Assembly: GCA_043811535.1 (NCBI GenBank)
Contig: JBDRNC010000020.1
Span: forward strand, 8,483-72,482
Direction of reading: 5' to 3'
Source of the DNA: Elusimicrobiota bacterium
Lineage (GTDB): Bacteria > Elusimicrobiota > Endomicrobiia > Endomicrobiales > JBDRNC01
Length of the DNA: 64,000 nucleotides
Shown here: positions 2 through 54,540 of the stretch, one piece after another
How positions within the stretch are numbered: position 1 is the first letter of the stretch
How the letters are laid out: every line of letters starts with the position of its first letter
The notes under the pieces: generated by a model
Databases searched by the model: none
Told to the model about the DNA's origin: nothing
What the model saw: the letters and a program-made list of their open reading frames with translations, nothing else
Position numbers and translations under genes: made by a program

Positions 2-1699
2 GAAATGAGGAAATGGCTGAAAATAATCCCGTCTTACAAGCTTGTTGACACGTGCGCCGGCGAATTTGAGGCCCGCACGCCTTATTTCTATTCTACGTAC
101 GAGAAAGAAGACGAGGTTACGCCGGGCAAGGGCAAAAAGGTCATGATACTCGGCGCCGGCCCGAACCGCATCGGGCAGGGCATAGAGTTTGACTACTGCT
201 GCGTTCACGCAGTTCTTTCTCTTAAAGACGACGGCTACCAGACTATCATGGTCAACTGCAATCCCGAGACGGTTTCAACCGATTACGATATCTCCGACAG
301 GCTGTATTTTGAGCCGCTGACCATAGAAGATGTGATGAATATCATAGAGAAGGAGAAACCTCTGGGCGTGATGGTCCAGTTTGGCGGCCAGACGCCGCTG
401 AACCTGACATCAGCGCTGGCAAAGGCGGGTGTGAAGATACTGGGCACGAGCCCGAGATCCATAAATATCGCGGAAGACCGGAAAGAATTCAGCAAGATAC
501 TCAATAAACTGAAGATACCGCAGGCGGCTTCAGGCACGGCGCTGACATTCGCCGAAGCAAAGACGATCGCCCACAAACTTACGTATCCTGTCATGGTAAG
601 GCCTTCTTATGTGCTGGGCGGGCGGGCGATGCAGATAATCTACGACGACACGATGTTGTCCGAATATATAGGGAAAGCCGTGCAGGCAAGCCCGGACCGG
701 CCGATACTGATAGATAAATTCCTGGACAGCGCGGTTGAGGTCGACGTTGACGCGCTAAGCGACGGGACGGACGTCTACATTGCGGGCATCATGGAGCATA
801 TCGAAGAAGCGGGGATACATTCCGGCGACTCGGCCTGCGTGATACCGACTAATTCTCTTAAAGACGAAACGTTGGAAACGATAAAAAAATATACGAAGGC
901 GCTGGCTCTTGAATTGCAGGTAAAAGGGCTGATAAATATTCAATTTGCCGTCAAAGACGGGGTGGTTTATATACTTGAAGCAAACCCGCGCGCTTCGCGC
1001 ACGGTGCCGTACGTCTCCAAGGCGACTGGCATACCGATAGCCAAACTGGCCGCGAAGGTCATGATGGATAAAAAACTGAAACAGCTGCTTCCAAAACAAC
1101 TGCTCGCTGATTCGCCGCCCAAGCTGAAGTGCGTCGCGGTCAAGGAAGTAGTTCTTCCATGGACGCGCTTCGCCAACGTAGATACTGTCCTCGGCCCGGA
1201 AATGAAAAGCACCGGCGAAGTGATGGGAATAGATATTGACTTTGGAAAAGCTTTCGCGAAAGCGGAGCTTGCTTCGGGCTCGGCTGTTCCGAGCGGCGGT
1301 TCGGTACTGGTCAGTCTCGGACCTGGCAAGAATGAATCTCTGCCGGTGCTGCGCGAGCTTATCGGATTGGGGTTTGAGATACTCGCGACAAAGCACACGG
1401 CGGAATTCCTTAGGCAGAACGGCCTTGAGGTCAGGGAAGTCAAGAAGATATCCGAGGGAAGGCCCAACGTAGTGGATGTTATCAAGAACCGGCAGGTAAG
1501 CCTTGTCATAAACACGCCCTCCGGAAAACGCAGCAGGGCCGACGGATACCATATAAGACGCAGCGCCGTCATGTATAATGTATCTATAGTAACAACTGTT
1601 GCCGCCGCAAAAGCCACAGTTGAAAGCATAAAAGCCGTACGCGCCAGCGGCTGGACCGTAAAATCATTACAAGAATACCATAAGAAATTAAAAGATTGA
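2..1699 (+). CDS. carB: carbamoyl-phosphate synthase large subunit, C-terminal half (5' end outside window, or a split carB)
   Basis: Frame is open to base 2. Product aligns to the second ATP-grasp plus MGS-like allosteric domain of CarB (GPNRIGQGIEFDYCCVH, MVNCNPETVSTDYD, LEANPRASRTVP). Confidence 0.9.
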   Translation, partial: EMRKWLKIIPSYKLVDTCAGEFEARTPYFYSTYEKEDEVTPGKGKKVMILGAGPNRIGQGIEFDYCCVHAVLSLKDDGYQTIMVNCNPETVSTDYDISDRLYFEPLTIEDVMNIIEKEKPLGVMVQFGGQTPLNLTSALAKAGVKILGTSPRSINIAEDRKEFSKILNKLKIPQAASGTALTFAEAKTIAHKLTYPVMVRPSYVLGGRAMQIIYDDTMLSEYIGKAVQASPDRPILIDKFLDSAVEVDVDALSDGTDVYIAGIMEHIEEAGIHSGDSACVIPTNSLKDETLETIKKYTKALALELQVKGLINIQFAVKDGVVYILEANPRASRTVPYVSKATGIPIAKLAAKVMMDKKLKQLLPKQLLADSPPKLKCVAVKEVVLPWTRFANVDTVLGPEMKSTGEVMGIDIDFGKAFAKAELASGSAVPSGGSVLVSLGPGKNESLPVLRELIGLGFEILATKHTAEFLRQNGLEVREVKKISEGRPNVVDVIKNRQVSLVINTPSGKRSRADGYHIRRSAVMYNVSIVTTVAAAKATVESIKAVRASGWTVKSLQEYHKKLKD

Positions 1700-1735
1700 A
1701 AGATTGGAAAGATTTAAAGATTAACGGCTTAACAG
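1691..1735. repeat. imperfect 7-9-nt tandem word array overlapping the carB stop
   Basis: AAAGATT GAAAGATT GGAAAGATT TAAAGATT AACGGCTT AACAG, read directly. Confidence 0.8.
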
Positions 1736-1762
1736 AACGACAGAAAAACTGAAAGAAACGAT

Positions 1763-1787
1763 AGCAATTAGCAATTGACAATTAGTC
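1763..1787. repeat. heptad array AGCAATT x3.5
   Basis: AGCAATT AGCAATT GACAATT AGTC. Confidence 0.8.
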
Positions 1788-1834
1788 AAAACTCGCAACT
1801 CATCACTAAATCTGCACAGCCCGGAGGAAAACAA

Positions 1835-4800
1835 ATGCCTCGCAGAAAAGACATCAGTAAAGTTCTGGTCATCGGTTCCGGTCCTATAATCATAGGGCAG
1901 GCATGCGAATTCGATTATTCAGGCACGCAGGCCTGCAAAGCGCTGAAGGAAGAAGGATACCAGGTTGTCCTCGTCAACTCTAACCCCGCCACTATCATGA
2001 CCGATCCCGAAATGGCCGACAGGACCTACATTGAACCGCTCAATGCGGAAATGCTTGAAAAGATAATAGAAAAAGAAAGGCCTGACGCGCTTCTCCCAAA
2101 TCTCGGCGGGCAAACCGGCCTTAATCTCTCTTCGGAACTCAGCAAGCTTGGGATTCTGGAAAAATATAACGTCAAATTAATCGGTTGTTCCGCGGACACC
2201 ATAGAGCGCGGCGAAGACAGGATAATTTTCAAGGAAACAATGGCGAAACTCGGCATTCCCGTGCCGAAAAGCTCCCCGTCGCATACCATTGAAGAAGCTG
2301 AAAAGATAGCGGAGGATATAGGATATCCGGTAATACTGCGGCCGGCATATACGATGGGCGGGACCGGAAGCGGTATAGTTTTCAACTGCGAGGAACTCAG
2401 AACCATAGCGGCAAGGGGCCTTGCGGTGAGCATGGTGCACCAGGTTTTAGTTGAACAGTGCGTGCTCGGATGGGAAGAGCTTGAGCTTGAGGTTGTGCGC
2501 GATACGAAAGGGCAGAAGATAACAGTTTGTTTCATAGAAAATATCGACCCTATGGGCGTGCACACCGGCGACAGCTTCTGCGTGGCGCCGATGCTGACGA
2601 TATCAAAGGAACTTCAGGCGAAACTGCAGGATTTTTCATACAGAATAGTTGACGCGATAGGTGTCGTGGGCGGGACGAATATACAGTTTGCCCATAACCA
2701 GGATACCGGCGAAGTCGTTGCTATAGAGATAAATCCGCGCACGTCGCGGTCTTCGGCGCTTGCGTCAAAAGCGACCGGATTCCCCATAGCCAGGATTTCG
2801 GCGAAACTCGCGGCGGGGCTGAATCTGGACGAGATTGATTACTGGCGCGACGGCACGCTGGATAAATACACACCGAGCGGCGATTATGTGGTGCTTAAAT
2901 TCGCGCGCTGGGCTTTTGAGAAGTTCCCGCAGGTTGAGGATAAGCTCGGCTCGCAGATGCAGGCGGTCGGCGAAGTGATGAGCATCGGCAAGAACTTTAA
3001 AGAGGCCTTTCAAAAAGCGATACGCTCGCTGGAAATCAAGCGTTACGGGTTGGGGGTTAAAAAGTTCTCCGAGATGTCCGAAAACGAACTAAGAACGCGC
3101 CTGAGTTATCCTTCAAGCGAAAGGTTTTTCCTGATGTACGAGGCGCTGCGCAAGGGATACAAGGTGGCAGAACTCTACCAGATGACGAAGGTGAAAAAGT
3201 GGTTCATCAGGCAGATGCAGGAGCTTGTCGAGTTCGAAGAAGACATAAAAAAATGCAAAAAACTTACGAAAGAAATACTCATTCAAGCTAAGGAAAACGG
3301 TTTTTCCGACAGGTATCTCGCGCAGCTGACCGGCGCGAAAGAAGCGGATATAAGGAAGCAGAGGCTCGCGGCCGGCAAGAAAGAGCATTACGAAGCGGTC
3401 CCGGTAAGCGGCGCCAAGGGGGAGTACTACTTCTCAACTTACTGCGCGAAAGATTCTGTTACGGTGTCGGATAAAAAGAAGGTCATAATTCTCGGGGGCG
3501 GACCGAACAGGATAGGGCAGGGAATAGAATTCGACTATACCTGCGTGCACGCCGCATTCGCGCTTAGGGAAGAAGGCATCGAATCGGTAATGATAAACTG
3601 CAATCCGGAGACGGTTTCAACCGATTACGACACGTCGAACAAGCTCTATTTCGAGCCGTTGACGGTTGAAGACGTGCTTTCCATATATGAAAAGGAAAAG
3701 CCCGAAGGCGTAATAGTCCAGTTCGGCGGCCAGACGCCGCTCAATATCGCTCAGGAGCTTGAAGACGCGGGCGTTAAGATACTCGGGACAAGCACGAAGA
3801 GCATCGCTATGGCGGAAGACAGGGAGCAATTCAAGGATATCGCCACTAAACTCGGCATACCACAGCCGGAGAGCGGCATAGCAAGGTCCGTTGACGAAGC
3901 GCTCGCGATAGCCAGGCGGATAGGATATCCGCTCATGGCGCGTCCTTCATTCGTGCTGGGCGGCCGCGGCATGCAGGTTGTATTCAATGAGAACATGTTC
4001 ATGGATTATATAAAGATGGCGGTGGACGTGAGTCCGGAGTACCCGATTCTGATAGATAAATTCCTGGAACAGGCCATAGAGACCGAGGTTGACGCCATTT
4101 CGGACGGCGAGGACGTATATATTCCGGCCATAATGGAGCACATAGAGCTGGCAGGCATACATTCGGGCGACAGCGCCTGCGTTATACCATCGCGCACTAT
4201 CCCTGAAAAGGCGAAAAAGGCCATGCTGGAATACACCGAAAAGCTGGCCAGGGAACTGAAGGTTGTCGGGCTCATGAACGTGCAGTACGCCATAGCCGAG
4301 GGCAAGGTCTACATACTTGAGGCCAACCCGCGCGCCTCGCGCACCGTGCCGCTCGTAAGCAAGGTCATGGGCATTTCCATGGCCAAGATAGCAACGAAAC
4401 TGATGATGGGCAGGAAGCTGAAAGATCTGACCGATTTCAAGATGCGCGAAGTAAAACATGTAGGCGTCAAAGAGGCCGTCTTCCCGTTCAACATGTTCCC
4501 GGCGGTTGATCCGCTGCTCGGTCCCGAGATGAAAGCTACGGGCGAGGTCCTGGGAATGGCGACGTCTTTCGGGCTCGCATACTATAAAGCAGAGGAAGCC
4601 GCCGGAATGCAGCTTCCGGCAGAAGGGACCGTGCTCATTTCGGTCGCGGACAGGGACAAGAAATACATAATTGACATAATAAACAAGCTTGTAAAACTCG
4701 GATTCAAGATATCCGCTACGCGAGGCACAAAGGATTATCTGGAAAAGAACGGGATTCAGGCCGAACTCGCGCTTAAGCTGACCGAAGGCAGGCCGTCCAT

Positions 4801-5017
4801 AACGGACGACATCGTGAATAAGAAGATCAGTATGATCATCAACACTCCGCGCGGCGAAGGCGGAAAATACGACGATAGTTACATCAGAAAAACCGCTATA
4901 CAGCAGAAAGTGCCCTATATTACGACCATCGCCGCCGCTTCTGCCGCTGTTGAAGGCATTGAAGCGATAAAGAACGATAAAATAGAAGTTAAGGCGCTGC
5001 AGGATTATCATAAATAA
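1835..5017 (+). CDS. carB: carbamoyl-phosphate synthase large subunit, full length (1060 aa)
   Basis: Both ATP-grasp halves, oligomerisation and allosteric domains are present. I moved the start to ATG 1835 (MPRRKDISKVLVIGSGPIIIGQACEFDYSG), which follows GGAGG at 1823-1827. The track start at 1775 adds 20 non-homologous residues. Confidence 0.95.
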   Translation: MPRRKDISKVLVIGSGPIIIGQACEFDYSGTQACKALKEEGYQVVLVNSNPATIMTDPEMADRTYIEPLNAEMLEKIIEKERPDALLPNLGGQTGLNLSSELSKLGILEKYNVKLIGCSADTIERGEDRIIFKETMAKLGIPVPKSSPSHTIEEAEKIAEDIGYPVILRPAYTMGGTGSGIVFNCEELRTIAARGLAVSMVHQVLVEQCVLGWEELELEVVRDTKGQKITVCFIENIDPMGVHTGDSFCVAPMLTISKELQAKLQDFSYRIVDAIGVVGGTNIQFAHNQDTGEVVAIEINPRTSRSSALASKATGFPIARISAKLAAGLNLDEIDYWRDGTLDKYTPSGDYVVLKFARWAFEKFPQVEDKLGSQMQAVGEVMSIGKNFKEAFQKAIRSLEIKRYGLGVKKFSEMSENELRTRLSYPSSERFFLMYEALRKGYKVAELYQMTKVKKWFIRQMQELVEFEEDIKKCKKLTKEILIQAKENGFSDRYLAQLTGAKEADIRKQRLAAGKKEHYEAVPVSGAKGEYYFSTYCAKDSVTVSDKKKVIILGGGPNRIGQGIEFDYTCVHAAFALREEGIESVMINCNPETVSTDYDTSNKLYFEPLTVEDVLSIYEKEKPEGVIVQFGGQTPLNIAQELEDAGVKILGTSTKSIAMAEDREQFKDIATKLGIPQPESGIARSVDEALAIARRIGYPLMARPSFVLGGRGMQVVFNENMFMDYIKMAVDVSPEYPILIDKFLEQAIETEVDAISDGEDVYIPAIMEHIELAGIHSGDSACVIPSRTIPEKAKKAMLEYTEKLARELKVVGLMNVQYAIAEGKVYILEANPRASRTVPLVSKVMGISMAKIATKLMMGRKLKDLTDFKMREVKHVGVKEAVFPFNMFPAVDPLLGPEMKATGEVLGMATSFGLAYYKAEEAAGMQLPAEGTVLISVADRDKKYIIDIINKLVKLGFKISATRGTKDYLEKNGIQAELALKLTEGRPSITDDIVNKKISMIINTPRGEGGKYDDSYIRKTAIQQKVPYITTIAAASAAVEGIEAIKNDKIEVKALQDYHK

Positions 5018-5032
5018 CTGCAGCAATTAGCA

Positions 5033-5051
5033 ATTGGCAATTAGCAATTAG
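5033..5051. repeat. heptad array GCAATTA/GCAATTG
   Basis: GCAATTA GCAATTG GCAATTA GCAATTAG immediately after the carB stop. Confidence 0.8.
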
Positions 5052-5154
5052 AAAAACTAACAGTCAAAAAAAATATTTTGGAAATATTTTTTGAGAAAAA
5101 CGTTCTCCGACGGAAAACCTGCCGGAAAATATTTTGAAATAAATTGAAAAAAAC

Positions 5155-5183
5155 TTGACACACAACTAGTTGTATGATATAAT
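5155..5183 (+). promoter_or_regulatory. consensus sigma70-type promoter TTGACA-17-TATAAT
   Basis: TTGACA 5155-5160, 17-nt spacer, TATAAT 5178-5183. Confidence 0.7.
5160..5175. promoter_or_regulatory. NrdR-box-like palindrome inside the promoter spacer
   Basis: ACACAACTAGTTGTAT with perfect inner palindrome ACAACTAGTTGT. It resembles the 16-bp NrdR box (ACACwAtATaTwGTGT). Confidence 0.55.
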
Positions 5184-5245
5184 CCCCTTAGACAAGATGT
5201 AGTGGTATTTGGCTTTGTTAGGGGGGATTTTATTATTCCTTGACA

Positions 5246-5261
5246 ACGCAATATATAGCAT
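5246..5261. promoter_or_regulatory. second NrdR-box-like site
   Basis: ACGCAATATATAGCAT, about 12/16 matches to the NrdR-box consensus by eye. It lies 86 bp centre-to-centre from the first site, which is not the usual tandem spacing. Confidence 0.35.
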
Positions 5262-5552
5262 AGGCTGGCTCTGAAATACAACCTGTAGTGTTCCGGACGC
5301 GCCCAAACAAACCTCAGAGGCCCTGTTAGATACTCCAAAACCTATACGCACAGACAGCCTTCTACCCGCAGTTTTTTGTTTTTTTAGCAGTTTTTAAAGG
5401 AACAATCTTTTAAATCTTTCTAATCCACCTTCGTCCATCATGATGGACTTCGGCGGATTTCAGCTTGCTGTCAAATGACTTATTCATATACGGGCTTACG
5501 CCCGTAGAGCTTCAATCTTTCAAATCTTTGTAATCTTGTAATTGTATCTATT

Positions 5553-6053
5553 ATGCGCTGCCCCTTCTGCAAGAGTTTTAACGACCAAGTCATAGATTCC
5601 AGGCCGATGGACGAATCTTCTGTCATCCGCAGGCGAAGGGAATGCCTGGAATGCAATAAAAGATTCACAACCTACGAACGCCTTGAGGAGATGCCTCTCA
5701 TGGTGGTCAAATCCGACCAGCGCAGGGAGCTTTTTAACCGCCAGAAAATCCGCGAAGGAATAGCCAAAGCATGCGAAAAACGCCCGATCTCGCAGGACAC
5801 AATTGAAAAGATAGCCAGCGAAGTGGAATACGAGTTGCAGGACTACGTGATGGAGGCCCCGAGCCGCACTATAGGCGGAAAAGTCCTTGAGAAGCTCAAG
5901 AAGATAGACCACGTGGCCTATATAAGGTTCGCTTCGGTCTATCACCAGTTCGAGGACATAGATAAGTTCATGAAAGAACTTAAAAAGATCAAAAAAGAAT
6001 ACAAAAATATGGAAGAATCAAAAGCGGAAGAAATCAAAAAAAGCAGCGAGTAA
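5553..6053 (+). CDS. nrdR: transcriptional repressor NrdR (zinc ribbon + ATP-cone)
   Basis: MRCPFC...CLECNKRFTTYE zinc ribbon followed by an ATP-cone. It sits directly upstream of an RNR gene. Confidence 0.95.
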   Translation: MRCPFCKSFNDQVIDSRPMDESSVIRRRRECLECNKRFTTYERLEEMPLMVVKSDQRRELFNRQKIREGIAKACEKRPISQDTIEKIASEVEYELQDYVMEAPSRTIGGKVLEKLKKIDHVAYIRFASVYHQFEDIDKFMKELKKIKKEYKNMEESKAEEIKKSSE

Positions 6054-6065
6054 GAAATAGAGAGA

Positions 6066-6093
6066 GTAGCCGGCACTTAAGTGCCGGTCTACC
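6066..6093. repeat. CTTAAG-centred palindromic hairpin, copy 1
   Basis: GTAGCCGGCACTTAAGTGCCGGTCTACC. A near-identical copy lies at 12401-12428. Confidence 0.85.
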
Positions 6094-6229
6094 TAAGACA
6101 GGTGTCAATACCCTTCGGGTATTTCGCAATAGGACAGTTCAATACTACGCTTAAGGTGCTCAATCCCCTTCGGGGATCTCACTTGCGACAATTTAGAAAA
6201 ACACTTAAGGTGTTCGAGGAGGCAGTGAA

Positions 6230-8548
6230 ATGGTTATGAGTTTAAATCGACAGGAGCTCTTGCAGAAAGTGAAACCGGTGTTAACGCAGAATTCCCTTAC
6301 TGTTCTGAAAAAACGATATTTACGCAAAGACGTAACCGGCAACGCTATCGAGGAGCCGGCGGAGCTTTTTTGGAGGGTTGCCGAGAACATCGCGCAGGCC
6401 GACAAGAATTATGATCAGAACGCCGATATTGAGTCGCTTGCTCAGGAATTCTACATACTCATGGCCACGCTTGATTTTCTCCCGAACTCGCCTACCCTTA
6501 TGAATGCCGGCAGGGAACTGCAGCAGCTTTCCGCGTGCTTCGTCCTTCCGATAGAAGATTCAATGGACTCTATTTTTGAGACGCTGAAAAATACGGCGAT
6601 TATACATAAATCCGGCGGCGGCACGGGTTTTTCTTTCACGCGCCTGCGCCCTAAAAACGACATGGTCGCCAGCACCAGCGGCGTTTCATCAGGCCCGGTA
6701 TCTTTCATGCAGGTCTTTAACTCCGCCACTGAAGCGATAAAGCAGGGCGGCACGCGGCGCGGCGCGAACATGGGGATCCTTCGGGTGGACCACCCGGATA
6801 TCATGGATTTCATATCCTGCAAAACTAAAAACGAGAGCCTCAACAACTTCAATATATCTGTCGCGCTCACGGCCGAGTTTATGGACGCCGTTGAAGACGA
6901 CAGTGAATTCGCGCTTTACAGCCCCAGGACAAAACAAGAGCTCGGGCGCATGCGCGCGAAAGACGTATTTGAAAAGATAGTGGACCAGGCGTGGAGGAAC
7001 GGCGAGCCGGGAATAGTATTCATAGACCGAATCAACGCGGCGAACCCGACGCCCGCGGTGGGCATGATAGAATCCACGAACCCCTGCGGGGAACAGCCGC
7101 TCCTTCCTTATGAATCCTGCAACCTCGGCTCAATTAACCTGTCGCACATGGTTTACGAAGGCAAGATAGACTGGAACCGCCTTGAAAAAGTCATAAAAAC
7201 CTCCGTGCATTTCTTGGACAACGTCATAGACATGAATAACTACCCGATTGAACAGATAGCCCAGATGACCAGGTCAAACCGGAAGATCGGCCTCGGCGTG
7301 ATGGGCTGGGCCGACATGCTTGTGCAGCTTAACATATCTTATAACTCGCATGAAGCGATGAAACTCGCGGAAAAGATAATGTCATTCGTGCAGGACAAGG
7401 CACGCGACGCGTCCGAGGTGCTGGCAGAAAAGCGCGGCGCTTTTCCGAACTTCAAGCAGAGCATTTATAGCGACCAGAAGCCGAGAAGGAACGCGACGCT
7501 CACGACGATAGCTCCCACGGGCACGATAGGCATAATCGCGAACGCCTCCAGCGGCGTTGAGCCCTACTTCGGGCTTGTGTACAAGCGCGCGAACGTGCTT
7601 GACAACCAGGAGATGATGGAGATAAATCCGTTTTTTGAGCAATCCGCCAAAGATATGGGCTTCCATTCCGACGGCCTTATGGGCCGCATAGCCGAGAGAG
7701 GCAGCATCAAGGAGTTCAAGGAAATCCCGGAAAAAACCCGCAAGGTATACACCACATCGCACGATATATCACCTGAAGACCACATCAGGATGCAGGCAGT
7801 TTTCCAGAAATACACCGATAACGCGGTATCAAAAACAGTCAACTTCTCGCATTCGGCGACCAGGGATGACGTCGCCAGCGTCTACATGCTGGCATACAAG
7901 CTCGGGTGTAAGGGCGTCACGGTTTACCGTGACGGCAGCCGCGATGTGCAGGTGCTCAATATTGGCAGCGCGCCGGCGGGCAAGGACGGCAAGATGGAGT
8001 TTAAGGAACGCCGGCCGCGCCACCGCCCGAAAGTCACGCACGGCTCCACGCTTCTCATGAATACCGGATGCGGAAAGATGTATGTCACGGTTAACGAAGA
8101 CGAGCAGGGCGCGTGCGAGGTATTCACTCAGCTTGGAAAATCCGGCGGGTGTACGGCGTCGCAGGCCGAGGCGGTAAGCCGCATGATATCGCTGGCGCTG
8201 CGTTCCGGGATAAGCCAGGAAGAGATCGTCTTCCAGCTGAAAGGGATACGCTGCCCGTCGCCGACGCTGGCCGAAGGCGGCGCGATACTTTCATGCGCGG
8301 ACGCGATAGCAAAAGCCCTTGAAAACTATCAGAAGGAAAGGGTTATACCGGACCTTTTCAGCGGAGATACCAAAGCGATCCCGGCGACAACGGTAATTGA
8401 GGCGAAGAAAAGCTCGGGAACAGGCGGCAATCTTAATAAACGCGACTTTGTCGGCTCGTGCCCGCAGTGCCCCGAATGCGGCGAGATGCTTGAATTCGGC
8501 GAAGGCTGTGTTGTGTGCCGGAGCTGCGGATACTCTAAATGTTGGTAG
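6230..8548 (+). CDS. nrdJ: class II (adenosylcobalamin-dependent) ribonucleotide reductase
   Basis: 772 aa with [15 protein letters not shown] and a C-terminal CxxC...CxxC zinc-ribbon tail. RBS GAGGAGG lies upstream. Confidence 0.9.
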
Positions 8549-8556: not shown

Positions 8557-8628
8557 GCGATTGGCAATTGGCGATTAGTTAAAGGCTTTTTGTCGTTACT
8601 AATGGCTAATGGCAAATCGCTAATTGCT
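8557..8628. repeat. heptad-word inverted repeat (GCGATTG/GCAATTG arms vs ACTAATG/GCTAATG arms)
   Basis: Left arm GCGATTGGCAATTGGCGATTAGT, loop, right arm ACTAATGGCTAATGGCAAATCGC. The arms are imperfectly complementary. Confidence 0.75.
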
Positions 8629-8657
8629 AAAAAACAATAACAGGATAGTCCTAAGAT

Positions 8658-9275: not shown

Positions 9276-9354
9276 GCCATTAGCAATTTGCTATTGGCAA
9301 TTAGTGAAAAACAATTAGAAGTTTACTAATAGCTAATGGCTAATTACTAATAGC
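9276..9354. repeat. heptad-word inverted repeat (ATTAGCA/ATTGGCA arms vs CTAATAG/CTAATGG arms)
   Basis: GCCATTAGCAATTTGCTATTGGCAATTAGT - GAAAAACAATTAGAAGTTT - ACTAATAGCTAATGGCTAATTACTAATAGC. Confidence 0.75.
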
Positions 9355-9376
9355 TGAAAACTGGAGGTTTTAACAA

Positions 9377-10552: not shown

Positions 10553-10590
10553 AATTACGATTACAAATTACAAATTTCAGATTACAAATT
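10553..10590. repeat. heptad array AATTACG/ATTACAA
   Basis: AATTACG ATTACAA ATTACAA ATTTCAG ATTACAA ATT. Confidence 0.8.
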
Positions 10591-10768: not shown

Positions 10769-10800
10769 ACGAAATACGAACTACGAAATACGGAATACGG
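10769..10800. repeat. heptad array AAATACG
   Basis: ACG AAATACG AACTACG AAATACG GAATACG G, just upstream of the guaA start. Confidence 0.8.
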
Positions 10801-12337: not shown

Positions 12338-12359
12338 ATGTAAGGCGAGCTGTAAATGA

Positions 12360-12428
12360 GGGGACTTAAGTCCCCGAATGGCGAGACGAACAACCAAATT
12401 GTAGCCGGCACTTAAGTGCCGGGCTACC
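12360..12428. repeat. two CTTAAG-centred palindromic hairpins (copy 2 of the 6066 element plus a variant)
   Basis: GGGGACTTAAGTCCCC (12360-12375) and GTAGCCGGCACTTAAGTGCCGGGCTACC (12401-12428). Confidence 0.85.
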
Positions 12429-12440
12429 TGGGAGATTTAA

Positions 12441-13073: not shown

Positions 13074-13110
13074 TGAATAAATTGCTAATTGATAATTGTT
13101 AATTGAAATA

Positions 13111-14160: not shown

Positions 14161-15051
14161 ATGAATGGCGCCCTGCAAAATGAAAAAATAGACCTGCCTT
14201 TGCTTCACCGCGGGAAGGTACGCGACGTTTACGGCATGGGACAGCAGCTGCTCATCGTTGCGAGCGACCGCATATCCGCCTTTGATTTCGTGCTTCCTAC
14301 GATGATACCGGACAAGGGAAAGGTTCTTCACCAGCTTTCCATGTTCTGGTTTGACCTCATCCAGAGCATAGTTCCCAATCATCTGATAACGGGTGATTTT
14401 GAACAGTTCCCGACAAAATTAAAGCAGTACCCGTACCTTAAACAGCGGACAATGCTTGTTAAAAAAACCAAAAGAGTGGATGTTGAGTGCATAGTCCGCG
14501 GGTACCTGTCGGGTTCGGGCTGGAAAGAGTATAATAAATCAGGGGCCATTTGCGGCATCAAACTGCCGAACGGAATGAGGGAATCATCTAAGTTCTCCGA
14601 GCCGATATTCACCCCGACAAGCAAAGAAGAGGGCGGAAAGCACGACGAGAACATTACTTTCGAAGAGATGTCGGACAGGATAGGAAAGGACATCGCCGCG
14701 AAAATAAGGGACGCGTCGGTCGCGGTATATAAGAAAGCGTCGGGATACGCGGAAACAAGGGGAATAATTATTGCAGATACCAAGTTCGAGTTCGGGATGC
14801 TTGATGACAAACTTATACTCATAGACGAGATCCTGACGCCGGATTCATCGCGGTTCTGGGAAAAGAGCAAGTACGAAGAAGGCCGGCCCCAGGATAGTTT
14901 AGACAAGCAGTATGTCAGGGACTTTCTTGAATCGATCAAATGGGATAAGCAGCCCCCGGTCCCGGGCCTTCCGGAAGATGTCGTTGCCAAAACGCGCGAG
15001 AAATATGTCGACGCGCATAAGAAGATAACGGGGAAAGATTTACTGATATAA
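14161..15051 (+). CDS. purC: SAICAR synthase
   Basis: 296 aa with GKVRDVY, ASDRISAFD and IIADTKFEFG. Confidence 0.95.
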   Translation: MNGALQNEKIDLPLLHRGKVRDVYGMGQQLLIVASDRISAFDFVLPTMIPDKGKVLHQLSMFWFDLIQSIVPNHLITGDFEQFPTKLKQYPYLKQRTMLVKKTKRVDVECIVRGYLSGSGWKEYNKSGAICGIKLPNGMRESSKFSEPIFTPTSKEEGGKHDENITFEEMSDRIGKDIAAKIRDASVAVYKKASGYAETRGIIIADTKFEFGMLDDKLILIDEILTPDSSRFWEKSKYEEGRPQDSLDKQYVRDFLESIKWDKQPPVPGLPEDVVAKTREKYVDAHKKITGKDLLI

Positions 15052-15124
15052 TTACAAATTACAGATTACACATTGAAAGACTCAAGGGCAGTTAATTTGT
15101 AATTTGGAATTTGTAATCTGTAAT
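15051..15124 (+). mobile_element. ~75-nt MITE-like element, family A copy 1 (ATTACAN heptad arms + conserved core)
   Basis: ATTACAAATTACAGATTACAC-ATTGAAAGACTCAAGGGCAGTTAAT-TTGTAATTTGGAATTTGTAATCTGTAAT. The core recurs at 18204, 26099 (reverse) and 51145. Confidence 0.7.
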
Positions 15125-18170: not shown

Positions 18171-18174
18171 AGGA

Positions 18175-18247
18175 AATTACAAATTACAGATTACATATTA
18201 CAGATTGAAAACTTTTAAGCAGTTAATTTGGAATTTGTAACCTATAA
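18175..18247 (+). mobile_element. MITE-like element, family A copy 2
   Basis: AAATTACAAATTACAGATTACATATTACAG-ATTGAAAACTTTTAAGCAGTTAAT-TTGGAATTTGTAACCTATAAT. Confidence 0.7.
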
Positions 18248-20473: not shown

Positions 20474-20536
20474 ATGGCTTAATGGCTGAATTGCTGAAAG
20501 GCTTAAAGCCATTTAACCATTTAACAATTTAGCAAT
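20471..20536. repeat. octad-word hairpin, family B copy 1 (AATGGCT / AGCCATT arms)
   Basis: TAAATGGCTTAATGGCTGAATTGCTGAAAGGCTT-A-AAGCCATTTAACCATTTAACAATTTAGCAAT. It starts on the purF stop codon. Confidence 0.75.
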
Positions 20537-23052: not shown

Positions 23053-23070
23053 TAAAACAAAGGACTAATA

Positions 23071-31914: not shown

Positions 31915-32011
31915 GGGCAGTTAGCTCAGCGGAAGAGCGGGCCGACATATCGGCCTGGCCGCAGCGGCCACTCCGGGAATCGCTAAAAGATTTATTGTAT
32001 TGTTACATTTT
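31915..32011 (+). pseudogene. tRNA-Val-derived pseudo-tRNA unit 2
   Basis: Same layout as unit 1, with hairpin GGCCGA-CATA-TCGGCC (stem conserved, loop changed). Confidence 0.75.
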
Positions 32012-32083
32012 GGGCAGTTAGCTCAGCGGAAGAGCGCTCGCCTTACACGCGAGTGGCCGCAGGTTCAAATCCTGCACTGCCCA
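32012..32083 (+). tRNA. tRNA-Val (anticodon UAC)
   Basis: Hand-folded cloverleaf: acceptor GGGCAGT/ACTGCCC, D-arm GCTC/GAGC, anticodon arm CTCGC-CTTACAC-GCGAG, T-arm GCAGG-TTCAAAT-CCTGC. No CCA is encoded. Confidence 0.9.
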
Positions 32084-32194
32084 TGATAGATAAAAGTTCC
32101 AGCGCAGCCGACAAGTAATTGGGGAAACGAAAGTTATTTGAGCGGATTTTGCGCCCCGTCTTTCGGGGCACTGCCTATATCAGCGGGAAAGCAA

Positions 32195-38058: not shown

Positions 38059-38073
38059 GCCGGAAGAGGGAAG

Positions 38074-39057
38074 ATGGAAGGCGGAAGAGTAATTAAAACG
38101 GTATTCCTTATCACACTGACAACTGTCATCTGTCAACTGTCAACCGCTGTTTATGCGCAGTTCCCGTACGCGTGCGGCGCCCGGGCGATAGGGATGGGCG
38201 GAGCTTTCAGCGCCGTATCTGCGGAGATATCGGCGCTGTACTGGAATCCAGCCGGGCTGGGATACTTGCAGAAAAAGGAAATATCGGCGATGTACGACAA
38301 GGATTTTATTGATACTAAAAACTGTTTTCTGGGTTACGGCCAGCCTGCGGCGGAGACCGGAGGATTCGGGTTCGGCTGGTACAGAGTGGCGAATGATTTC
38401 GAAAAGACGGATATTTCCGGGAATTCGCTGGGTTCGGGAGAGTATTCCGGGAATGTCTTGACCCTGGGCGCCGGTTACTACAGGGGCCTTCCATTTTCGG
38501 TCGGAATAAGCCTGAAATATATGGATGAAAGGATAGACAGCTACTCGATATCAGGGGCGGCGCTGGACGCGGGGCTTTTGTACGAGTATTCCTCGTTCAG
38601 ATTCGCGGTTGTCATGCAGAACGTTCTGAATACAGGGATGAGGGGCGATTCAACGGCTGGCGGAGAGTCAAAAGAGGATATCCCGTTTTCAGGAACGCTG
38701 GGAATAGCGTATTCAGGCCTGAGTGGAATAGAGTTCGCGGATAAACGTCCGCCAGCGGTCTCCGCGGCGCAGGAAAAAGAGCAAGAAAAAGAAGTCACAA
38801 AGGGAATCGTCGGCATTTCGTATATCATGGGATGCGATGTTACGGTCACGCCGGGCAACCCCTCGAAAACCGCGTTCAGTCCGGGTTGCGAGGTCTGGGT
38901 GAATGAAACGATAGGATTCAGGGCGGGCTACAGGCGGCTGAGGAACGTAACGGCCGGGCTGTCATTCAAATACGAGATATTCAGGATAGATTACGCTTTC
39001 GTGGCAAACCCGGACCTTGAAAACGGGAACATAGTGTCATCGTCGATGTATTTTTGA
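38074..39057 (+). CDS. PorV/PorQ-like outer-membrane beta-barrel protein
   Basis: N-terminal GARAIGMGGAFSAVSAEISALYWNPAGL motif, beta-strand-rich sequence and terminal aromatic residue (MYF). Confidence 0.6.
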   Translation: MEGGRVIKTVFLITLTTVICQLSTAVYAQFPYACGARAIGMGGAFSAVSAEISALYWNPAGLGYLQKKEISAMYDKDFIDTKNCFLGYGQPAAETGGFGFGWYRVANDFEKTDISGNSLGSGEYSGNVLTLGAGYYRGLPFSVGISLKYMDERIDSYSISGAALDAGLLYEYSSFRFAVVMQNVLNTGMRGDSTAGGESKEDIPFSGTLGIAYSGLSGIEFADKRPPAVSAAQEKEQEKEVTKGIVGISYIMGCDVTVTPGNPSKTAFSPGCEVWVNETIGFRAGYRRLRNVTAGLSFKYEIFRIDYAFVANPDLENGNIVSSSMYF

Positions 39058-43220: not shown

Positions 43221-43880
43221 ATGAAGAAAATATTGATGATTCTGCTAGTCACCAGTCACTGGTCACTAGTCACTATGTTTTGCGGATGCAGCAAGAATCC
43301 CGTTACACAGCTGATCGAACCTGTAACGGTCAATGCTTCTCCGCAGTGGAGCGGCAACTGGACGCTTTACGACGATGAATTGAAAACTGGCGGGGATGTT
43401 ATGATGATCGGATGGGGTGGCAATTTTACGGTTGATTTCAACTGCCGCGAAAATCCCTGCGAAGGCGTAAAATGCATAAAACTTGACTGGAACGGGGGCG
43501 CGGTTGAAATTTCCGGAGGAAGCACGGACCTTTACACAGGATTTTCGCTGATCGTTGCCAAAAGCTACAGCGACTATCTCTCTGCGAGCAGGGACCTGTC
43601 CCCGGGAGGCTACACGAAAGCCAGTTTTTACGCCAGGAAAGGTTTTATGTCCTCCAATGCCGTGTTGAGAATTGAGAGCCCGAACGGGAATAGCGATTCC
43701 GCAGCTCCCAACAACGTCTGGGAAGGAGCGCTTACGGAGAATTGGAAAGAATACACGCTTAACATTACGGGAAGTTTGTCGGCGGCCAGGCATTTTATGA
43801 ATATCGTCTTAAAAACAAGCGACGCGAAAAAGGGAAGCGGCGCGACGGTATATATTGACAATATCAAATTGACCAAATAA
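43221..43880 (+). CDS. CBM-like lipoprotein (family member 3)
   Basis: Lipobox FCGC. The signal-peptide h-region is encoded by the CTRGTCA heptad array (43245-43274). The protein ends VYIDNIKLTK. Confidence 0.45.
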   Translation: MKKILMILLVTSHWSLVTMFCGCSKNPVTQLIEPVTVNASPQWSGNWTLYDDELKTGGDVMMIGWGGNFTVDFNCRENPCEGVKCIKLDWNGGAVEISGGSTDLYTGFSLIVAKSYSDYLSASRDLSPGGYTKASFYARKGFMSSNAVLRIESPNGNSDSAAPNNVWEGALTENWKEYTLNITGSLSAARHFMNIVLKTSDAKKGSGATVYIDNIKLTK

Positions 43881-45693: not shown

Positions 45694-45765
45694 TGATGGA
45701 CCGTTGCCATAGAATGCATCAGTCAGGTGAGGAAAAACACCCGTCAAGGGAATCAGGAGGACAGG

Positions 45766-46512
45766 ATGAAGAAAGTATTGTTGTTAGTAATCGCAGTTTC
45801 ACTGGCGGCCGCAATGTCATCATTCGCCGCAAGCTCAATCAGCAGGAGCACTTTTACGGCTTCGGTTGATTTCAGCACGTTTCAGGGAGTTACATACATC
45901 AATGTAGCGCTAAAGAACATTTACAGCGGGGCGAACGCGTCGCAATTCTCGTTTACTCCGAGTGCCGGGGCGCTAGGCATCGGAACGACGTGGTACACGG
46001 CGAACGAATATGCCGTCATATTCACGACATGGACCAAGGATAACGTCGGGCGCGTGCTTATTTATACGGATAATACCGCCGCAGACGCAAATCCAAAATA
46101 CGCTGGCGCGGGCAATGCCGCGGGTTTGGTCTGTTCCACATCGACCGTCTCCGGAGACGATCCGATCAATCTGTGCTGGCGCGCTACCGATGTATCAACC
46201 ACAACGTACAAGATCGGGTGGTATCTGCAGGGAACAGCCATGAAGCTGTACGGCCTGGGCCTTTCACAGGACTACTATTGTTTTCTTTGGATGAAGGATA
46301 AAGGATCGGATGGAAATTGGTATAATGTAGACAACGGCTACGCTTCAATAAAGTCGTTTGACAACAGCGGCTCATGGCTGCAGCATGCGGAGAGCCAGCT
46401 GGGAACAACGGCTTCGCCGGATTACTTTTATCTCGGCGCGAACCTGGAAAAAGCCAAAGCCGGCAGGACGTACAAGACTTCCACGCTCAGGTTTGACCTT
46501 GTAATGGATTAA
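45766..46512 (+). CDS. secreted protein of unknown family (shares a ~200-aa domain with the 47720 ORF)
   Basis: AGGAGG-N6-ATG and signal peptide MKKVLLLVIAVSLAAAMSSFA. Shared blocks are IYTDN..ANP[KR]Y[AT]G...GLVCST and Y.Y.GAN.E....GR.Y. Confidence 0.7.
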   Translation: MKKVLLLVIAVSLAAAMSSFAASSISRSTFTASVDFSTFQGVTYINVALKNIYSGANASQFSFTPSAGALGIGTTWYTANEYAVIFTTWTKDNVGRVLIYTDNTAADANPKYAGAGNAAGLVCSTSTVSGDDPINLCWRATDVSTTTYKIGWYLQGTAMKLYGLGLSQDYYCFLWMKDKGSDGNWYNVDNGYASIKSFDNSGSWLQHAESQLGTTASPDYFYLGANLEKAKAGRTYKTSTLRFDLVMD

Positions 46513-50084: not shown

Positions 50085-50128
50085 GGGCAGACAGAAGACG
50101 GAAGAATGAAGATTGAAGCGGACTACAT

Positions 50129-51100
50129 ATGAAGAATACATTATTGGGAGTTAACATTTTGAAGATAATTAGGATGATGATTGTGTTTATACTTCCATCT
50201 TCCATCTTCCTTCTTCCATCTGTTATTGAAGGAGCATTCAAGGATTCCGGTTGGGGTGCGCGTCCTCTAGGAATGGGCGGAGCGTTTACCGCGGTGGCGG
50301 ACGATTCGAATGCGCCGCTTTTTAATCCGGCGGGAATTAGCCTGGCGGGCCGGATTGAAGTGACCTTCATGTCGGCAAAACTGTTTGCGGGACTGGAAGG
50401 CGTGGAAGTAGGGCAGAACTTTTTCAGCTGCATATATCCGCTGGGCGGAAAAAGGGGCGACATGGCGTTGAGCTGGTCATCTTTAAACTCCCCGGCTCTG
50501 TACCGCGAGGATTCGCTGGCTCTTTCGTACAGCCGTTACCTGCAAAAAGCCGATAATATCAACTTTTCGTTAGGCGCCAATTTCAAATATCTTAACCATG
50601 AATATACTCTTGACAAGAGAACGCTCAATGATCCAGTCTTCCGGAGTAAGAACGCTGCCGGAAATTTCGGGCTGGATCTAGGAGTCCTGGCCGTATGGCC
50701 GGAAAACGGGTTTTCAATGGGCGTCATGAGTAAGAATATCAATCAGCCGGATATCGGTATAAAGACTGAGGACCTAGTTCCAAACGAAAACGCGCTGGGA
50801 TTTTCTTTCTATCAGGAGAAAATGCGGAATCCGAGTCTCGAATATTTTACGTTCGCGATTGATCTGGTAAGCAGATTGAAGGATCTGGATGTTAGGGCGG
50901 GTGCCGAAAGCTGGTTCTTTAACGGAAGTTTCGCCGTTAGACTCGGTTATGCGACGCATTCCGTCACTTCGGGGCTGGGATATGAATTCAAAGCCGGCGG
51001 GAATACAAGTTTTGTTATTGACTACGCGTTCGCTTGGCCGCTTGAAATAGAAAAGACCGTGGGCACTCACCGCATGGGGCTTACTCTCCGGTTACCGTAA
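50129..51100 (+). CDS. PorV/PorQ-like outer-membrane beta-barrel protein
   Basis: WGARPLGMGGAFTAVADDSNAPLFNPAGI motif. The signal peptide is encoded by a CTTCCAT heptad array (50192-50222). Confidence 0.6.
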   Translation: MKNTLLGVNILKIIRMMIVFILPSSIFLLPSVIEGAFKDSGWGARPLGMGGAFTAVADDSNAPLFNPAGISLAGRIEVTFMSAKLFAGLEGVEVGQNFFSCIYPLGGKRGDMALSWSSLNSPALYREDSLALSYSRYLQKADNINFSLGANFKYLNHEYTLDKRTLNDPVFRSKNAAGNFGLDLGVLAVWPENGFSMGVMSKNINQPDIGIKTEDLVPNENALGFSFYQEKMRNPSLEYFTFAIDLVSRLKDLDVRAGAESWFFNGSFAVRLGYATHSVTSGLGYEFKAGGNTSFVIDYAFAWPLEIEKTVGTHRMGLTLRLP

Positions 51101-51135: not shown

Positions 51136-51307
51136 ACCGCGACAATTGAAAGTGTAAAGACTATTGCAGTTCACTTATCAGTAAACTGTCAACCGTCAAC
51201 TGTCAACTGTGAACCGTCGAAAAATCTTTGAAATTTGATAGTTGAAAGTAGACCGTCCGCCACTGAGACTTTGGCGGACTCCAGATTTTTACGCAGTAAA
51301 AATCTTT

Positions 51308-52258: not shown

Positions 52259-52259
52259 A

Positions 52260-52445
52260 ATGAGGGTAAGCGTTAACAAGGACACATGCATCGGCTGCGG
52301 GCTTTGCGAATCAAATTGCCCGGATGTGTTTGAGATGAAAGATAACATCGCAGTCATCAAATCAGAAACAGTGGCGGCCAAAGACGAGGAATGCGCAAAG
52401 CAGATGGTCAACGATTGCCCGGTAACGTGCATATCAGTTTCATGA
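52260..52445 (+). CDS. small ferredoxin (single [3Fe/4Fe-4S] cluster type)
   Basis: 61 aa with CIGCGLCESNCP...C..CP. Confidence 0.8.
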   Translation: MRVSVNKDTCIGCGLCESNCPDVFEMKDNIAVIKSETVAAKDEECAKQMVNDCPVTCISVS

Positions 52446-54191: not shown

Positions 54192-54204
54192 ATACATATA
54201 GTGT

Positions 54205-54277
54205 GCTGGGGTAGCTCAGTCGGTAGAGCACAGGTCTGAAAAACCTGGTGTCGACAGTTCGATTCTGTCCCCCAGCA
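54205..54277 (+). tRNA. tRNA-Phe (anticodon GAA)
   Basis: Hand-folded: acceptor GCTGGGG/CCCCAGC, anticodon arm CAGGT-CTGAAAA-ACCTG, T-arm GACAG-TTCGATT-CTGTC. Confidence 0.9.
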
Positions 54278-54381
54278 TTTTTAACAACGTTTACACAGAT
54301 TTAAGAGAGGAGATTTCACAGATTACGATAAACAAAATATCTGTGTAATCTATTTTTAGAATCTGTGTAATCGCATTTATT

Positions 54382-54453
54382 GCCGAGGTAGCTCAGCGGT
54401 AGAGCAATGGTTTCGTAAACCATAGGCCGTGGGTTCAAATCCCATCCTCGGCT
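54382..54453 (+). tRNA. tRNA-Thr (anticodon CGU)
   Basis: Hand-folded: acceptor GCCGAGG/CCTCGGC, anticodon arm ATGGT-TTCGTAA-ACCAT, T-arm GTGGG-TTCAAAT-CCCAT. Confidence 0.9.
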
Positions 54454-54540
54454 GTTAACTGCAGTTGGAAGTGGGAAGTTGGAAGACGGAAGTAAAAACA
54501 GGGACAACAAGGCATAAACTGGGATTTGAAGCCGACCTGA
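54437..54540 (+). repeat. 104-bp perfect direct repeat, copy 1 (includes the last 17 nt of tRNA-Thr)
   Basis: AAATCCCATCCTCGGCTGTTAACTGCAGTTGGAAGTGGGAAGTTGGAAGACGGAAG...GAAGCCGACCTGA is identical to 54613-54716. Confidence 0.9.

Follow-up and report, generated by a model that had tools for sequence, protein, structure and literature searches.

The 64,000-nt stretch of DNA analysed here (the window: positions 8,483 to 72,482 of contig JBDRNC010000020.1, assembly GCA_043811535.1) comes from the metagenome-assembled genome (MAG) of an Elusimicrobiota bacterium, and many of its gene junctions are occupied by short tandem arrays of 7-nt words, often followed by a reverse-complementary array. These arrays, which recall the short tandemly repeated repetitive (STRR) sequences of heterocystous cyanobacteria, and the hairpin elements that they build are the subject of this study. 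The window has a G+C content of about 49% and carries all of its genes on the + strand, to which all features below likewise refer. A single nucleotide-biosynthesis cluster, delimited by Pfam matches, spans 1–31.5 kb: it opens with carB, nrdR, a class II ribonucleotide reductase (RNR) gene, dcd, guaB3, guaA, a phoU-like gene and pho4, continues with purC, purS, purL, purQ, purF, purD, purE and a phosphoribosyltransferase gene, and closes with pyrB, pyrC, the gene for the electron-transfer subunit of dihydroorotate dehydrogenase B (DHODH-B), pyrD, pyrF, a second phosphoribosyltransferase gene, purM, purN and purB. Beyond 31.5 kb lie genes for glycosidases, OmpA-like and PorP/SprF-like outer-membrane proteins and TPR/O-antigen-ligase proteins, together with four tRNAs. 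An NCBI MAG named 'Elusimicrobiota bacterium' encodes a protein 100% identical to the window's GuaB3, and the next relatives of GuaB3, 82–87% identical, are labelled Elusimicrobia or Endomicrobiales where their source is named; the host is thus outside the cyanobacteria for which STRRs were defined, as an earlier reading made from the letters of the window alone (the sequence-only reading) had supposed.

Heptamer arrays in the window

Arrays were called with Tandem Repeats Finder (TRF) against a background of 100 local dinucleotide shuffles. Twenty-eight period-7 arrays were observed, compared with a shuffle mean of 1.55 (maximum 5), along with 11 of period 14 (mean 0.28, maximum 2) and seven of period 8 (mean 1.75, maximum 5), and base autocorrelation peaks at lags 7 and 14 are present in the spacers and absent in coding sequences (CDS). 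Window arrays hold 3.4–5.0 copies, and their lengths, here and in four close relatives described below, cluster at 30–33 nt with a ceiling of 35 nt. Many are in fact 14-nt dimers repeated about twice, eleven scoring higher at period 14 in TRF. Four or five positions of an array word are constant and one or two variable, the variable positions being those left unpaired in stems. TRF arrays occupy 15 of the 34 spacers of at least 30 nt, and 13 of the 20 in the first 29.5 kb, which belong to the nucleotide-biosynthesis cluster; sub-threshold arrays occur in two more spacers, and nine arrays lie wholly within CDS. An inverted partner is found within 300 nt of 12 of the 34 window arrays and of none of the control sites, while about half of the arrays are solo. 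The words belong to four or five families that are reused across the window (AATTNNN at about ten loci, ATTACAR at four, GGAAGAN at five and GTCAACY/CTRGTCA at four), with 11 matches to the ATTACAR family where 0.08 would be expected. An excess of tandem 7-nt units drawn from a few word families dispersed over many loci is what characterizes both STRRs and heptanucleotide long simple sequence repeats (LSSRs), and about ten paired loci in the co-directional cluster supply the hairpin pairs between genes that are typical of STRRs.

The sequence-only reading had placed its arrays correctly to within a few bases, apart from a TTGAACT array at about 53100 that is weak and falls below the TRF threshold, and its comparison with STRRs holds. 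Its description was nevertheless too sweeping in several respects. Arrays are far from filling 'almost every spacer', as the counts above make plain, and three of those assigned to spacers (29158, 38116 and 43245) lie inside CDS. Most arrays do have period 7, but those at 20471 and 28433 (and a further one at 1687) have period 8; the design of a direct array followed by its reverse complement is seen at about ten loci but not in the solo half; and several word sets are indeed in use, although not a separate one for each spacer, a few families being used repeatedly. We thus consider the observation to be partly confirmed, real but overstated.

Two explanations were rejected. The arrays are not assembly artefacts, as they measure at most 35 nt, below read length, and are found again in assemblies made independently (NCBI, ENA, JGI and Logan); nor are they CRISPRs, as the 7-mers are contiguous, with no unique spacers. 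No Rfam family matched the arrays at the gathering threshold, at which the only matches in the window are the four tRNAs and one c-di-GMP-I riboswitch.

Paired elements at gene junctions

Direct and reverse-complement arrays occur together at about ten loci (8557, 9276, 15050, 18174, 20469, 26069, 27766, 28433, 50091/50192 and 51184). In the RNR–dcd spacer, the hairpin element at 8557–8630 has arms at 8557–8578 (GCRATTG) and 8599–8630 (CTAATGG) and a minimum free energy (MFE) of −29.7 kcal/mol (z −6.05 relative to shuffles). By sequence comparison it matches the element upstream of guaB3 at 9276–9355 (arms 9276–9306 and 9326–9355; z −5.88), whose 31 pairs are punctuated by periodic 1×1 mismatches and whose end lies 8 nt before a GGAGG ribosome-binding site (RBS). 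Three further elements make up family A, with ATTACAR words: one begins on the purC stop codon (15050–15124; z −5.30), its paralogue lies 3 nt past the purL stop (18174–18243), and an inverted copy begins on the stop of the DHODH-B electron-transfer subunit gene (26069–26144). Two elements are built of 8-nt words, the one at 20469–20536 (GCTNAATG / CCATTTAA) overlapping the purF stop and being homologous to the reverse complement of the other, which begins on the stop of a phosphoribosyltransferase gene, probably pyrE (28433–28505; AATTGCTA / TTTAACCA). At 27766–27834, a hairpin of GAAGNNN and CTTCNNT words uses the last ~11 codons and the stop of pyrF as its left arm (z −4.25). The minimal case of such pairing is found at 23013–23058, where an AGTTCNT array (×3.7) overlapping a phosphoribosyltransferase stop faces a single-copy complementary segment in a small hairpin (z −3.55). 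Outside the cluster, a long-range pair at 50091–50221 (z −3.99) joins GAAGANN (50091–50120), in the spacer and below the TRF threshold, to CTTCCAT ×4.3 (50192–50221) in the signal-peptide region of a PorP/SprF-like gene, with the RBS and start codon enclosed, and an AACYGTC array (×5.0) is accompanied by a partly complementary TTGAAAK array (×3.1) upstream of tRNA-Asp (51184–51249; z −3.43).

The placement of these elements is regular. In 11 of 12 stop-proximal arrays of the window the first arm lies on or a few bases from the upstream stop codon, and the second arm ends ~10–25 nt before the next start, leaving the Shine–Dalgarno sequence free. Stems comprise 14–31 pairs interrupted about once per heptamer (~7 nt), loops in the window measure roughly 5–25 nt (mostly about 18–20), with cargo of 75–95 nt in some other genomes, and the MFE of array hairpins lies at z −2.3 to −6.0 relative to shuffles.

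Hairpins directly past stop codons might be taken for intrinsic terminators of a non-canonical type, or for attenuators, by which transcription would be graded along the 30-kb cluster, the more so as terminators without a U-tract are used by some lineages. We regard this as highly improbable. The stems are AT-rich and interrupted, in contrast to the G+C-rich stem and U-tract of an intrinsic terminator; no T-run follows the stem at any array hairpin; a terminator scan, whose totals equalled the shuffle expectation, called none of them, in agreement with the sequence-only reading; and some of the hairpins separate purS, purL and purQ, which encode subunits that need to be co-expressed. The arrays of the window were also checked for the creation of promoters, and none was found.

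Folding and strand symmetry

A weightier alternative is that the hairpins are selected cis-acting RNA elements, serving as intercistronic stabilizers, RNase III processing sites, or devices that, by looping the spacer out, would pass a terminating ribosome on to the next RBS (translational coupling or shunt-like reinitiation). Stems far more stable than those of shuffled sequence, the bracketing of spacers from stop to RBS both in the window and in unrelated contigs (a ribosomal-protein operon included), the mostly co-directional junctions and arms narrowly distributed around ~31 nt, the size of an RNase III substrate, would all suit such a function; similar roles have been proposed for cyanobacterial STRR hairpins (PMC2670836), and Correia elements of Neisseria are bound or cleaved by RNase III (PMC2649163). 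The pairing itself, however, is indifferent to the transcribed strand. In the 26 co-directional pairs found over all loci examined, the arms are complementary at 663 of 763 positions (~87%), and wobble mismatches that would pair as G·U in the sense strand only number 15 as compared with 26 in the antisense strand only (p = 0.12); window stems contain 11 G·U pairs and 7 A·C mismatches. Plus and minus strands fold about equally well, and the periodic stem mismatches are uncompensated. Given this lack of G·U asymmetry and the like folding of the two strands, the stems bear no signature of selection for transcript-specific pairing. Furthermore, the same junctions lack an element in relatives whose GuaB3 is 82–87% identical, half of the arrays are solo, and arrays occur within CDS as well. 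We therefore consider a selected RNA function unlikely, though deserving of serious attention, and the punctuation or processing of mRNA suggested in the sequence-only reading is a hypothesis that strand symmetry does not favour.

Apparent copying between loci and turnover among relatives

A few element families appear to have been copied between loci, in either orientation and with their loops. The elements at 15050 and 18174 and the reverse complement of that at 26069 align over their full length, loop included; the first and last of these are 84% identical over 74 nt, and the 18174 element contains one additional heptamer. A metagenome scan for the family-A loop/arm junction (AGGCAGTTAATTTGTAATYTG) returned 0 matches, so the family-A loop is not conserved outside this genome. 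An array that follows carB in a relative (5410–5441 of contig L082) is identical at 31 of 33 positions to window positions 26069–26101, which lie at another locus, after the DHODH-B subunit gene.

Four syntenic contigs, L081, L082, L083 and L084 (GuaB3 identity 87%, 86%, 83% and 82%, respectively), were compared with the window. Period-7 arrays are nearly as dense in them (3.7 per 10 kb, compared with 4.4) and also start on stop codons, but the words differ, being ATAGCGN / CTATACG in L084, ATAAGTT / CTTATAG in L083, and ATAGCGT and AATTRCA in L082. In L084 and L082, complementary arrays stand at both ends of spacers of 200–440 nt, so that the spacer is wholly enclosed. Elements have been gained and lost at gene junctions between these genomes. 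The 85-nt hairpin spacer between purC and purS in the window corresponds to junctions of −4 nt in L081, −4 nt in L083 and 30 nt in L084, and that between purL and purQ, also 85 nt, to junctions of 9, −6 and 4 nt, respectively; the RNR–dcd spacer contains an array hairpin in the window and in L084, and a different structured element in L081–L083. Filled and empty forms of a junction are thus seen between relatives; at 82–87% GuaB3 identity the boundaries of the elements are unalignable, and their periodic ends hide any target-site duplication.

Where flanking sequence is conserved, words have changed in concert. The solo AGCAATT array (×4.3) that begins 4 nt past the carB stop (5022–5051) consists of GCAATTR words in the window and CAAATTR words in L082, where the orthologous site reads AATTGCA/AATTACA, and the solo ATTACAA array (×4.4) past the stop-proximal mini-hairpin of guaB3 (10560–10590) is ATTTAAA in L082; in each case the same change is present in all copies. 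Variable loop 1 of purL carries heptamer arrays of other words in the window (15964–15994; AGACTGA/AGACGGA ×4.4) and in L083, and a complete two-arm element in L084, where an in-frame insertion of 31 amino acids belongs to that genome's ATAGCGG/CTATACG family and has both arms present. The comparison of orthologous spacers proposed in the sequence-only reading thus found changing words within the same architecture, as anticipated, but not conserved presence at given junctions.

Could the arrays be purely local microsatellites, which arise by slippage in situ from heptamers that adjoin by chance, acquire inverted partners by local template switching and are never copied between loci? Heptanucleotide repeats are the most abundant class of long simple sequence repeats in many prokaryotes, for which polymerase slippage has been proposed (Mrazek 2007, as cited in PMC4679880), and indels in 7-nt steps distinguish Cyanothece strains (PMC4679880). 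The 14-nt super-periods, as well as the unrelated cargo of the elements in the ribosomal-protein operon L159 (see below), can also be counted in favour of this explanation. Nonetheless, whole elements with their loops are common to several loci in both orientations, near-identical arrays stand at different loci of different genomes, a few word families are reused, the arrangement polarity within the AATTRGC family is 19:1, and the AATTRGC word occurs across many unrelated contigs (at least 120 metagenome stretches), all of which makes an exclusively local origin improbable. Of the two possibilities raised in the sequence-only reading, an active generating mechanism is the better evidenced (dispersed copies with loops, concerted word change and 14-nt super-periods), while selection on structure found no positive evidence (no G·U excess, strands folding alike, uncompensated mismatches, gain and loss in close relatives, and arrays within CDS); its interpretation is in this sense partly supported.

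Wider distribution and polarity

A metagenome scan for AGCAATTRGCAATTRGCAATT (AATTRGC ×3) recovered at least 120 stretches, where about one would be expected by chance on a rough estimate, and among the matches listed the contigs range from 26% to 67% G+C; 22 viral contigs match as well. IMG/VR contigs with AATTRGC-type arrays, giant-virus MAGs included, are L205, L209, L212–L215, L218 and L226, some of them with inverted pairs. Pairs with loops of 14–38 nt are present in MAGs labelled Elusimicrobia, Planctomycetia, Verrucomicrobia and Dehalococcoidia, and in Omnitrophota-labelled loci heptamer arrays flank the guaB3 orthologue without clear inverted partners. Altogether, 80 loci contain 42 inverted pairs, with arm lengths peaking at 30–34 nt and gaps near 20 and 75–95 nt; no tRNA gene lies within the ~85-nt cargo between arms in ten array-rich loci. 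The share of arrays with an inverted partner is 12 of 34 in the window, 11 of 28 in the close relatives, 20 of 58 in Omnitrophota, Elusimicrobia and other loci, and 4 of 45 in cyanobacterial loci.

The positional rule seen in the window recurs in these loci. Pairs occupy 26 co-directional, six convergent and four divergent junctions (some of the divergent calls being doubtful), and in 24 of the 26 co-directional pairs the start of the first arm falls between −19 and +17 nt relative to the stop codon. In locus L159, a ribosomal-protein operon (S19-L22-S3-L16-L29-S17) with four bracketed spacers, the first arms begin −4 to +2 nt from the stop and the second arms end 11–22 nt before the start, around cargo of 73–86 nt whose sequences are unrelated, and three different words are used.

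The pairs also have an orientation of their own. AATTRGC-family pairs read 5′-(AATTRGC)n...(GCYAATT)n-3′ in 19 of 20 metagenome cases, the opposite arm order being found in three pairs on two viral contigs (L205 and L218), and in 26 of 34 pairs from the other word families the first arm is rich in purines. As reverse-complementing such a pair keeps the order of its arms, the polarity is a property of the element itself, independent of which way the region is transcribed. It fits descent from elements with defined termini, and the 19:1 ratio is what a terminal-inverted-repeat ancestor would lead one to expect. The stop-codon content of the arms fails to explain it: a first arm richer in stop codons would terminate all three frames, but its excess over the second arm is not significant (20 vs 13; 16 vs 9).

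An intrinsic head-to-head polarity is also what might be expected of protein-binding arrays acting at the DNA level, whether heptad operator- or centromere-like sites (as for ribbon-helix-helix proteins, which bind 7-bp heptads in direct and inverted orientation) or nucleoid or gyrase sites similar to bacterial interspersed mosaic elements (BIMEs). Period 7, ~4–5 copies in direct and inverted arrangement, complementarity that is strand-symmetric, and a 4-nt constant core among otherwise variable positions all agree with this. Yet sequence-specific recognition is difficult to square with the six or more unrelated words of a single 64-kb window and with the change of words from one relative to another; the analysis revealed no candidate binding protein, and arrays lie within CDS too. 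We think protein binding very unlikely as an explanation.

Origin and maintenance of the elements

We lean, at somewhat better than an even chance, towards a view of these STRR-type arrays as dispersed palindromic elements that spread from locus to locus as copies, that slippage keeps renewing and that the host tolerates wherever they can be looped out of the mRNA. Whole-element copies, gain and loss, in-frame insertions, concerted word change and intrinsic polarity point to such foldback elements. Each would consist of an arm of ~4.4 tandem copies (~31 nt), a loop or cargo, and a reverse-complement arm. Replication slippage in 7- or 14-nt units would continually renew the arrays, and could thereby account for concerted word change, 14-nt super-periods and the copy-number differences of paralogous elements. 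Insertions would survive only where they are harmless, which in a tight operon presumably means between the stop (or the last few codons) and the next RBS, and such survivorship at tight junctions would leave the first arm on the stop codon. In the polycistronic mRNA the arms may pair into an interrupted stem of 14–31 bp from which the inserted DNA is looped out, so that the stop would stay near the downstream RBS and operon expression would be preserved; looping-out of this kind would make inserts tolerable even between purS, purL and purQ. A benefit to the host, by exonuclease protection, RNase III processing or translational coupling, is plausible as a secondary development. The behaviour so described resembles, by analogy, that of bacterial miniature inverted-repeat transposable elements (MITEs) and of Rickettsia palindromic elements (PMC2229807, PMC2649163).

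Several observations weigh against this origin. Neither a transposase nor a REP-associated tyrosine transposase (RAYT) nor any other mobilizing gene was found by Pfam in the 64-kb window, and target-site duplications are not definable because the array ends are fuzzy. In L159 the length of the cargo is kept but its sequence is not, which is atypical for a MITE family and fits the formation of arrays at either end of a spacer that was already there. Neutral slippage does not predict so narrow an arm length (mode 30–33 nt, ceiling ~35 nt), in which there is a hint of structural constraint, and mostly co-directional placement and stop-to-RBS bracketing would fit a selected RNA function as well. 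Finally, the presence of one word across contigs of 26–67% G+C requires either horizontal spread or a common attractor.

We also entertain, tentatively and as a rather doubtful proposition, the idea that paired ~31-nt arrays bracketing spacers constitute a distinct, undescribed and phylogenetically widespread class of element, marked by an inherent polarity and by arms of fixed length. It would be either a self-renewing 'foldback' mobile element with tandem-repeat termini or a selected spacer-looping device for translational coupling or processing in long operons.

Relation to known repeats

In several cyanobacteria, STRRs with 7-bp units, which are also known from nif intergenic regions, form hairpins between hupS and hupL, for which transcript stabilization or translational coupling has been proposed (PMC2670836), and Jackman & Mulligan (1995, as cited in PMC2670836) wrote of 'highly variable but structured intergenic regions'. 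The arrays described here are similar in that tandem 7-nt units are dispersed in non-coding DNA and form hairpins between genes that are co-transcribed, as is presumably the case here, and in that words vary among related strains while the structure persists; moreover, GTCAACT arrays are present in a cyanobacterial locus (L070), and arrays of the related AATTGGT/AATTACC type in unclassified metagenome loci. They differ in their Elusimicrobiota host, in arms of ~35 nt at most (mode 31), compared with up to 108 nt in the sampled cyanobacterial loci, in the share of arrays with inverted pairing (~35–39% compared with 9%), and in that several arrays lie in frame within CDS. With heptanucleotide LSSRs, the TAACTGA repeats of Beggiatoaceae and the GGGAATC repeats of Xanthomonas and Nostoc, they share the preference for period 7, intergenic sites, length and sequence that vary between close relatives, and occasional inverted pairs, which have been noted in Xanthomonas (PMC4692102). 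TAACTGA repeats, however, lie mainly just upstream of start codons and have one dominant word, and GGGAATC repeats are G-rich quadruplex formers, whereas the words here are mostly AT-rich, fall into several families per genome and occur predominantly as a stop-anchored arm with an RBS-proximal complementary arm.

Correia/NEMIS, ERIC, RUP and Rickettsia palindromic elements are small (70–150 nt) dispersed palindromes with long stem-loop transcripts, and, like the elements here, MITEs and Rickettsia palindromic elements insert between operon genes and occasionally in frame in conserved genes, both long stem-loops and in-frame insertion being documented for bacterial MITEs (PMC2229807). The elements here, too, have terminal inverted repeats on either side of a short non-coding unit, and whole elements measure 68–82 nt in the window and ~145–150 nt in L159. 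Homologous internal sequence is seen in the 15050/18174/26069 group and in the 20469/28433 pair, as would be expected of a MITE, but not among the four elements of L159. Unlike those of MITEs, the terminal inverted repeats here are tandem heptamer arrays, internal sequence is often not conserved, and neither a target-site duplication nor a cognate transposase was identified in the 64-kb window. Repetitive extragenic palindromic (REP) sequences and BIMEs are likewise extragenic palindromes past stop codons in co-directional or convergent junctions, and are proposed mRNA stabilizers; however, REPs measure 20–40 nt and are G+C-rich and non-periodic with a GTAG/CGTC head (PMC3733652), whereas the arms here are AT-rich and heptamer-periodic without such a conserved head, and Pfam found no Y1/RAYT domain in the window.

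Since 1990 the function and origin of STRR-type heptamers have been an unsettled question, addressed almost exclusively in cyanobacteria; our literature search found no mention of heptamer repeats in Elusimicrobia, nor of AATTAGC-type strings in a bacterial context. What is new is that this architecture is found at high density in an Elusimicrobiota operon, and again elsewhere, under a simple positional rule from stop codon to next RBS. This recurrence, across labelled MAGs and unclassified contigs, offers a broad base from which to search for host factors and for empty and filled sites. In practical terms, the arrays distort calls of gene starts and gene ends, add residues to conserved enzymes (PurL, PurM) and to signal peptides, and may influence how operons are expressed in many uncultured lineages.

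Solo arrays and arrays within genes

The remaining arrays of the window include several solo ones. Near the 5′-end, an 8-nt array (ATTGAAAG ×4.4; 1687–1722) called by TRF overlaps the stop codon (1697–1699) of a first carB-like open reading frame (ORF), and a solo TAGCAAT array (×3.4; 1762–1785) of the AATTAGC family, also a TRF call, lies at the carB start. A solo ACGAAAT array (×4.4; 10769–10799) lies directly ahead of the guaA start and has no complementarity to the one at 10560. TRF further called an AATTGCT/AATTGAT array (×3.9; 13080–13106) that takes up the whole 22-nt gap separating the phoU-like gene from pho4, and a solo TAACAAT/TAGCAAT array (×4.7; 27066–27098) begins on the pyrD stop codon.

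Among arrays within CDS, AAGNNGG ×4.7 (17227–17259) occupies loop 2 of purL, where L081 and L084 have AAGGGKC arrays, and AGGGTCA ×3.4 (18668–18691) lies in purQ, its word being found also in purL loop 1 of L083. In purM, GTCAACY ×4.4 (29158–29188) coincides with 6 inserted amino acids that solved PurM structures in the PDB lack. Two others encode parts of signal peptides: at 38062–38144, a solo GGAAGAN array (×4) spanning the RBS and start of an outer-membrane-protein gene is followed by ACTGTCA ×4.3 in the signal-peptide coding region (the in-CDS array at 38116), and CTRGTCA ×4.4 (43245–43275) lies in a lipoprotein-like signal peptide. Two identical purine-rich arrays (AGTTGGA/AGACGGA ×4.4; 54463–54493 and 54639–54669) are part of a direct duplication immediately after tRNA-Thr, in which 54455–54530 is repeated at 54631–54706 (a 176-nt period) with a ~100-nt GC-rich structured segment between the copies.

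Other features of the window and its relatives

A perfect sigma-70 consensus promoter (TTGACA, 17 nt, TATAAT, extended TG) lies ahead of nrdR at 5155–5183, so the 30-kb co-directional cluster probably comprises more than one transcription unit. The c-di-GMP-I riboswitch aptamer (RF01051; 45526–45616; 54.4 bits, compared with a gathering score of 35) is situated in a 369-nt spacer upstream of the ORF at 45727–46512, which has no Pfam match and heads a run of unannotated genes. An apparent spacer at 52259–52390 seems to harbour a small ORF that had not been listed, with a ferredoxin-like CxxCxxCxxxCP motif (CIGCGLCESNCP). In the region 31816–32084, two 97-nt tandem units precede tRNA-Val (32011–32084), each starting with the first ~25 nt of the tRNA (GGGCAGTTAGCTCAGCGGAAGAGCG) and running on into a hairpin rich in GC; they could represent partial duplications of the tRNA, or else tRNA-like repeats.

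Two other kinds of intergenic repeat were observed. A two-hairpin repeat of ~85 nt (GGGGACTTAAGTCCCC ... GTAGCCGGCACTTAAGTGCCGGNCTAC), without an Rfam match, lies in the guaA–phoU spacer (12345–12430); its second hairpin occurs alone in the nrdR–RNR spacer (6067–6095), and a whole copy is present in the nrdR–RNR spacer of L082 (6330–6412). The structured element of the relatives, ~150–200 nt long (…GCTCGGAAC…AAGTCG(T)CGCACAGACGC…CCTCGC…), is found in the RNR–dcd spacers of L081 (1493–1713), L082 (8787–8996) and L083 (9204–9397) and in the guaA–phoU spacers of L081 (7844–7990) and L083 (12752–12907), and looks like another dispersed intergenic repeat family; at the corresponding sites the window has a heptamer hairpin or a CTTAAG-loop element. 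Lastly, L081 carries a restriction–modification pair (N6_N4_Mtase and RE_MjaI; 3932–6301) between guaB3 and guaA, in a gene order that is otherwise conserved.

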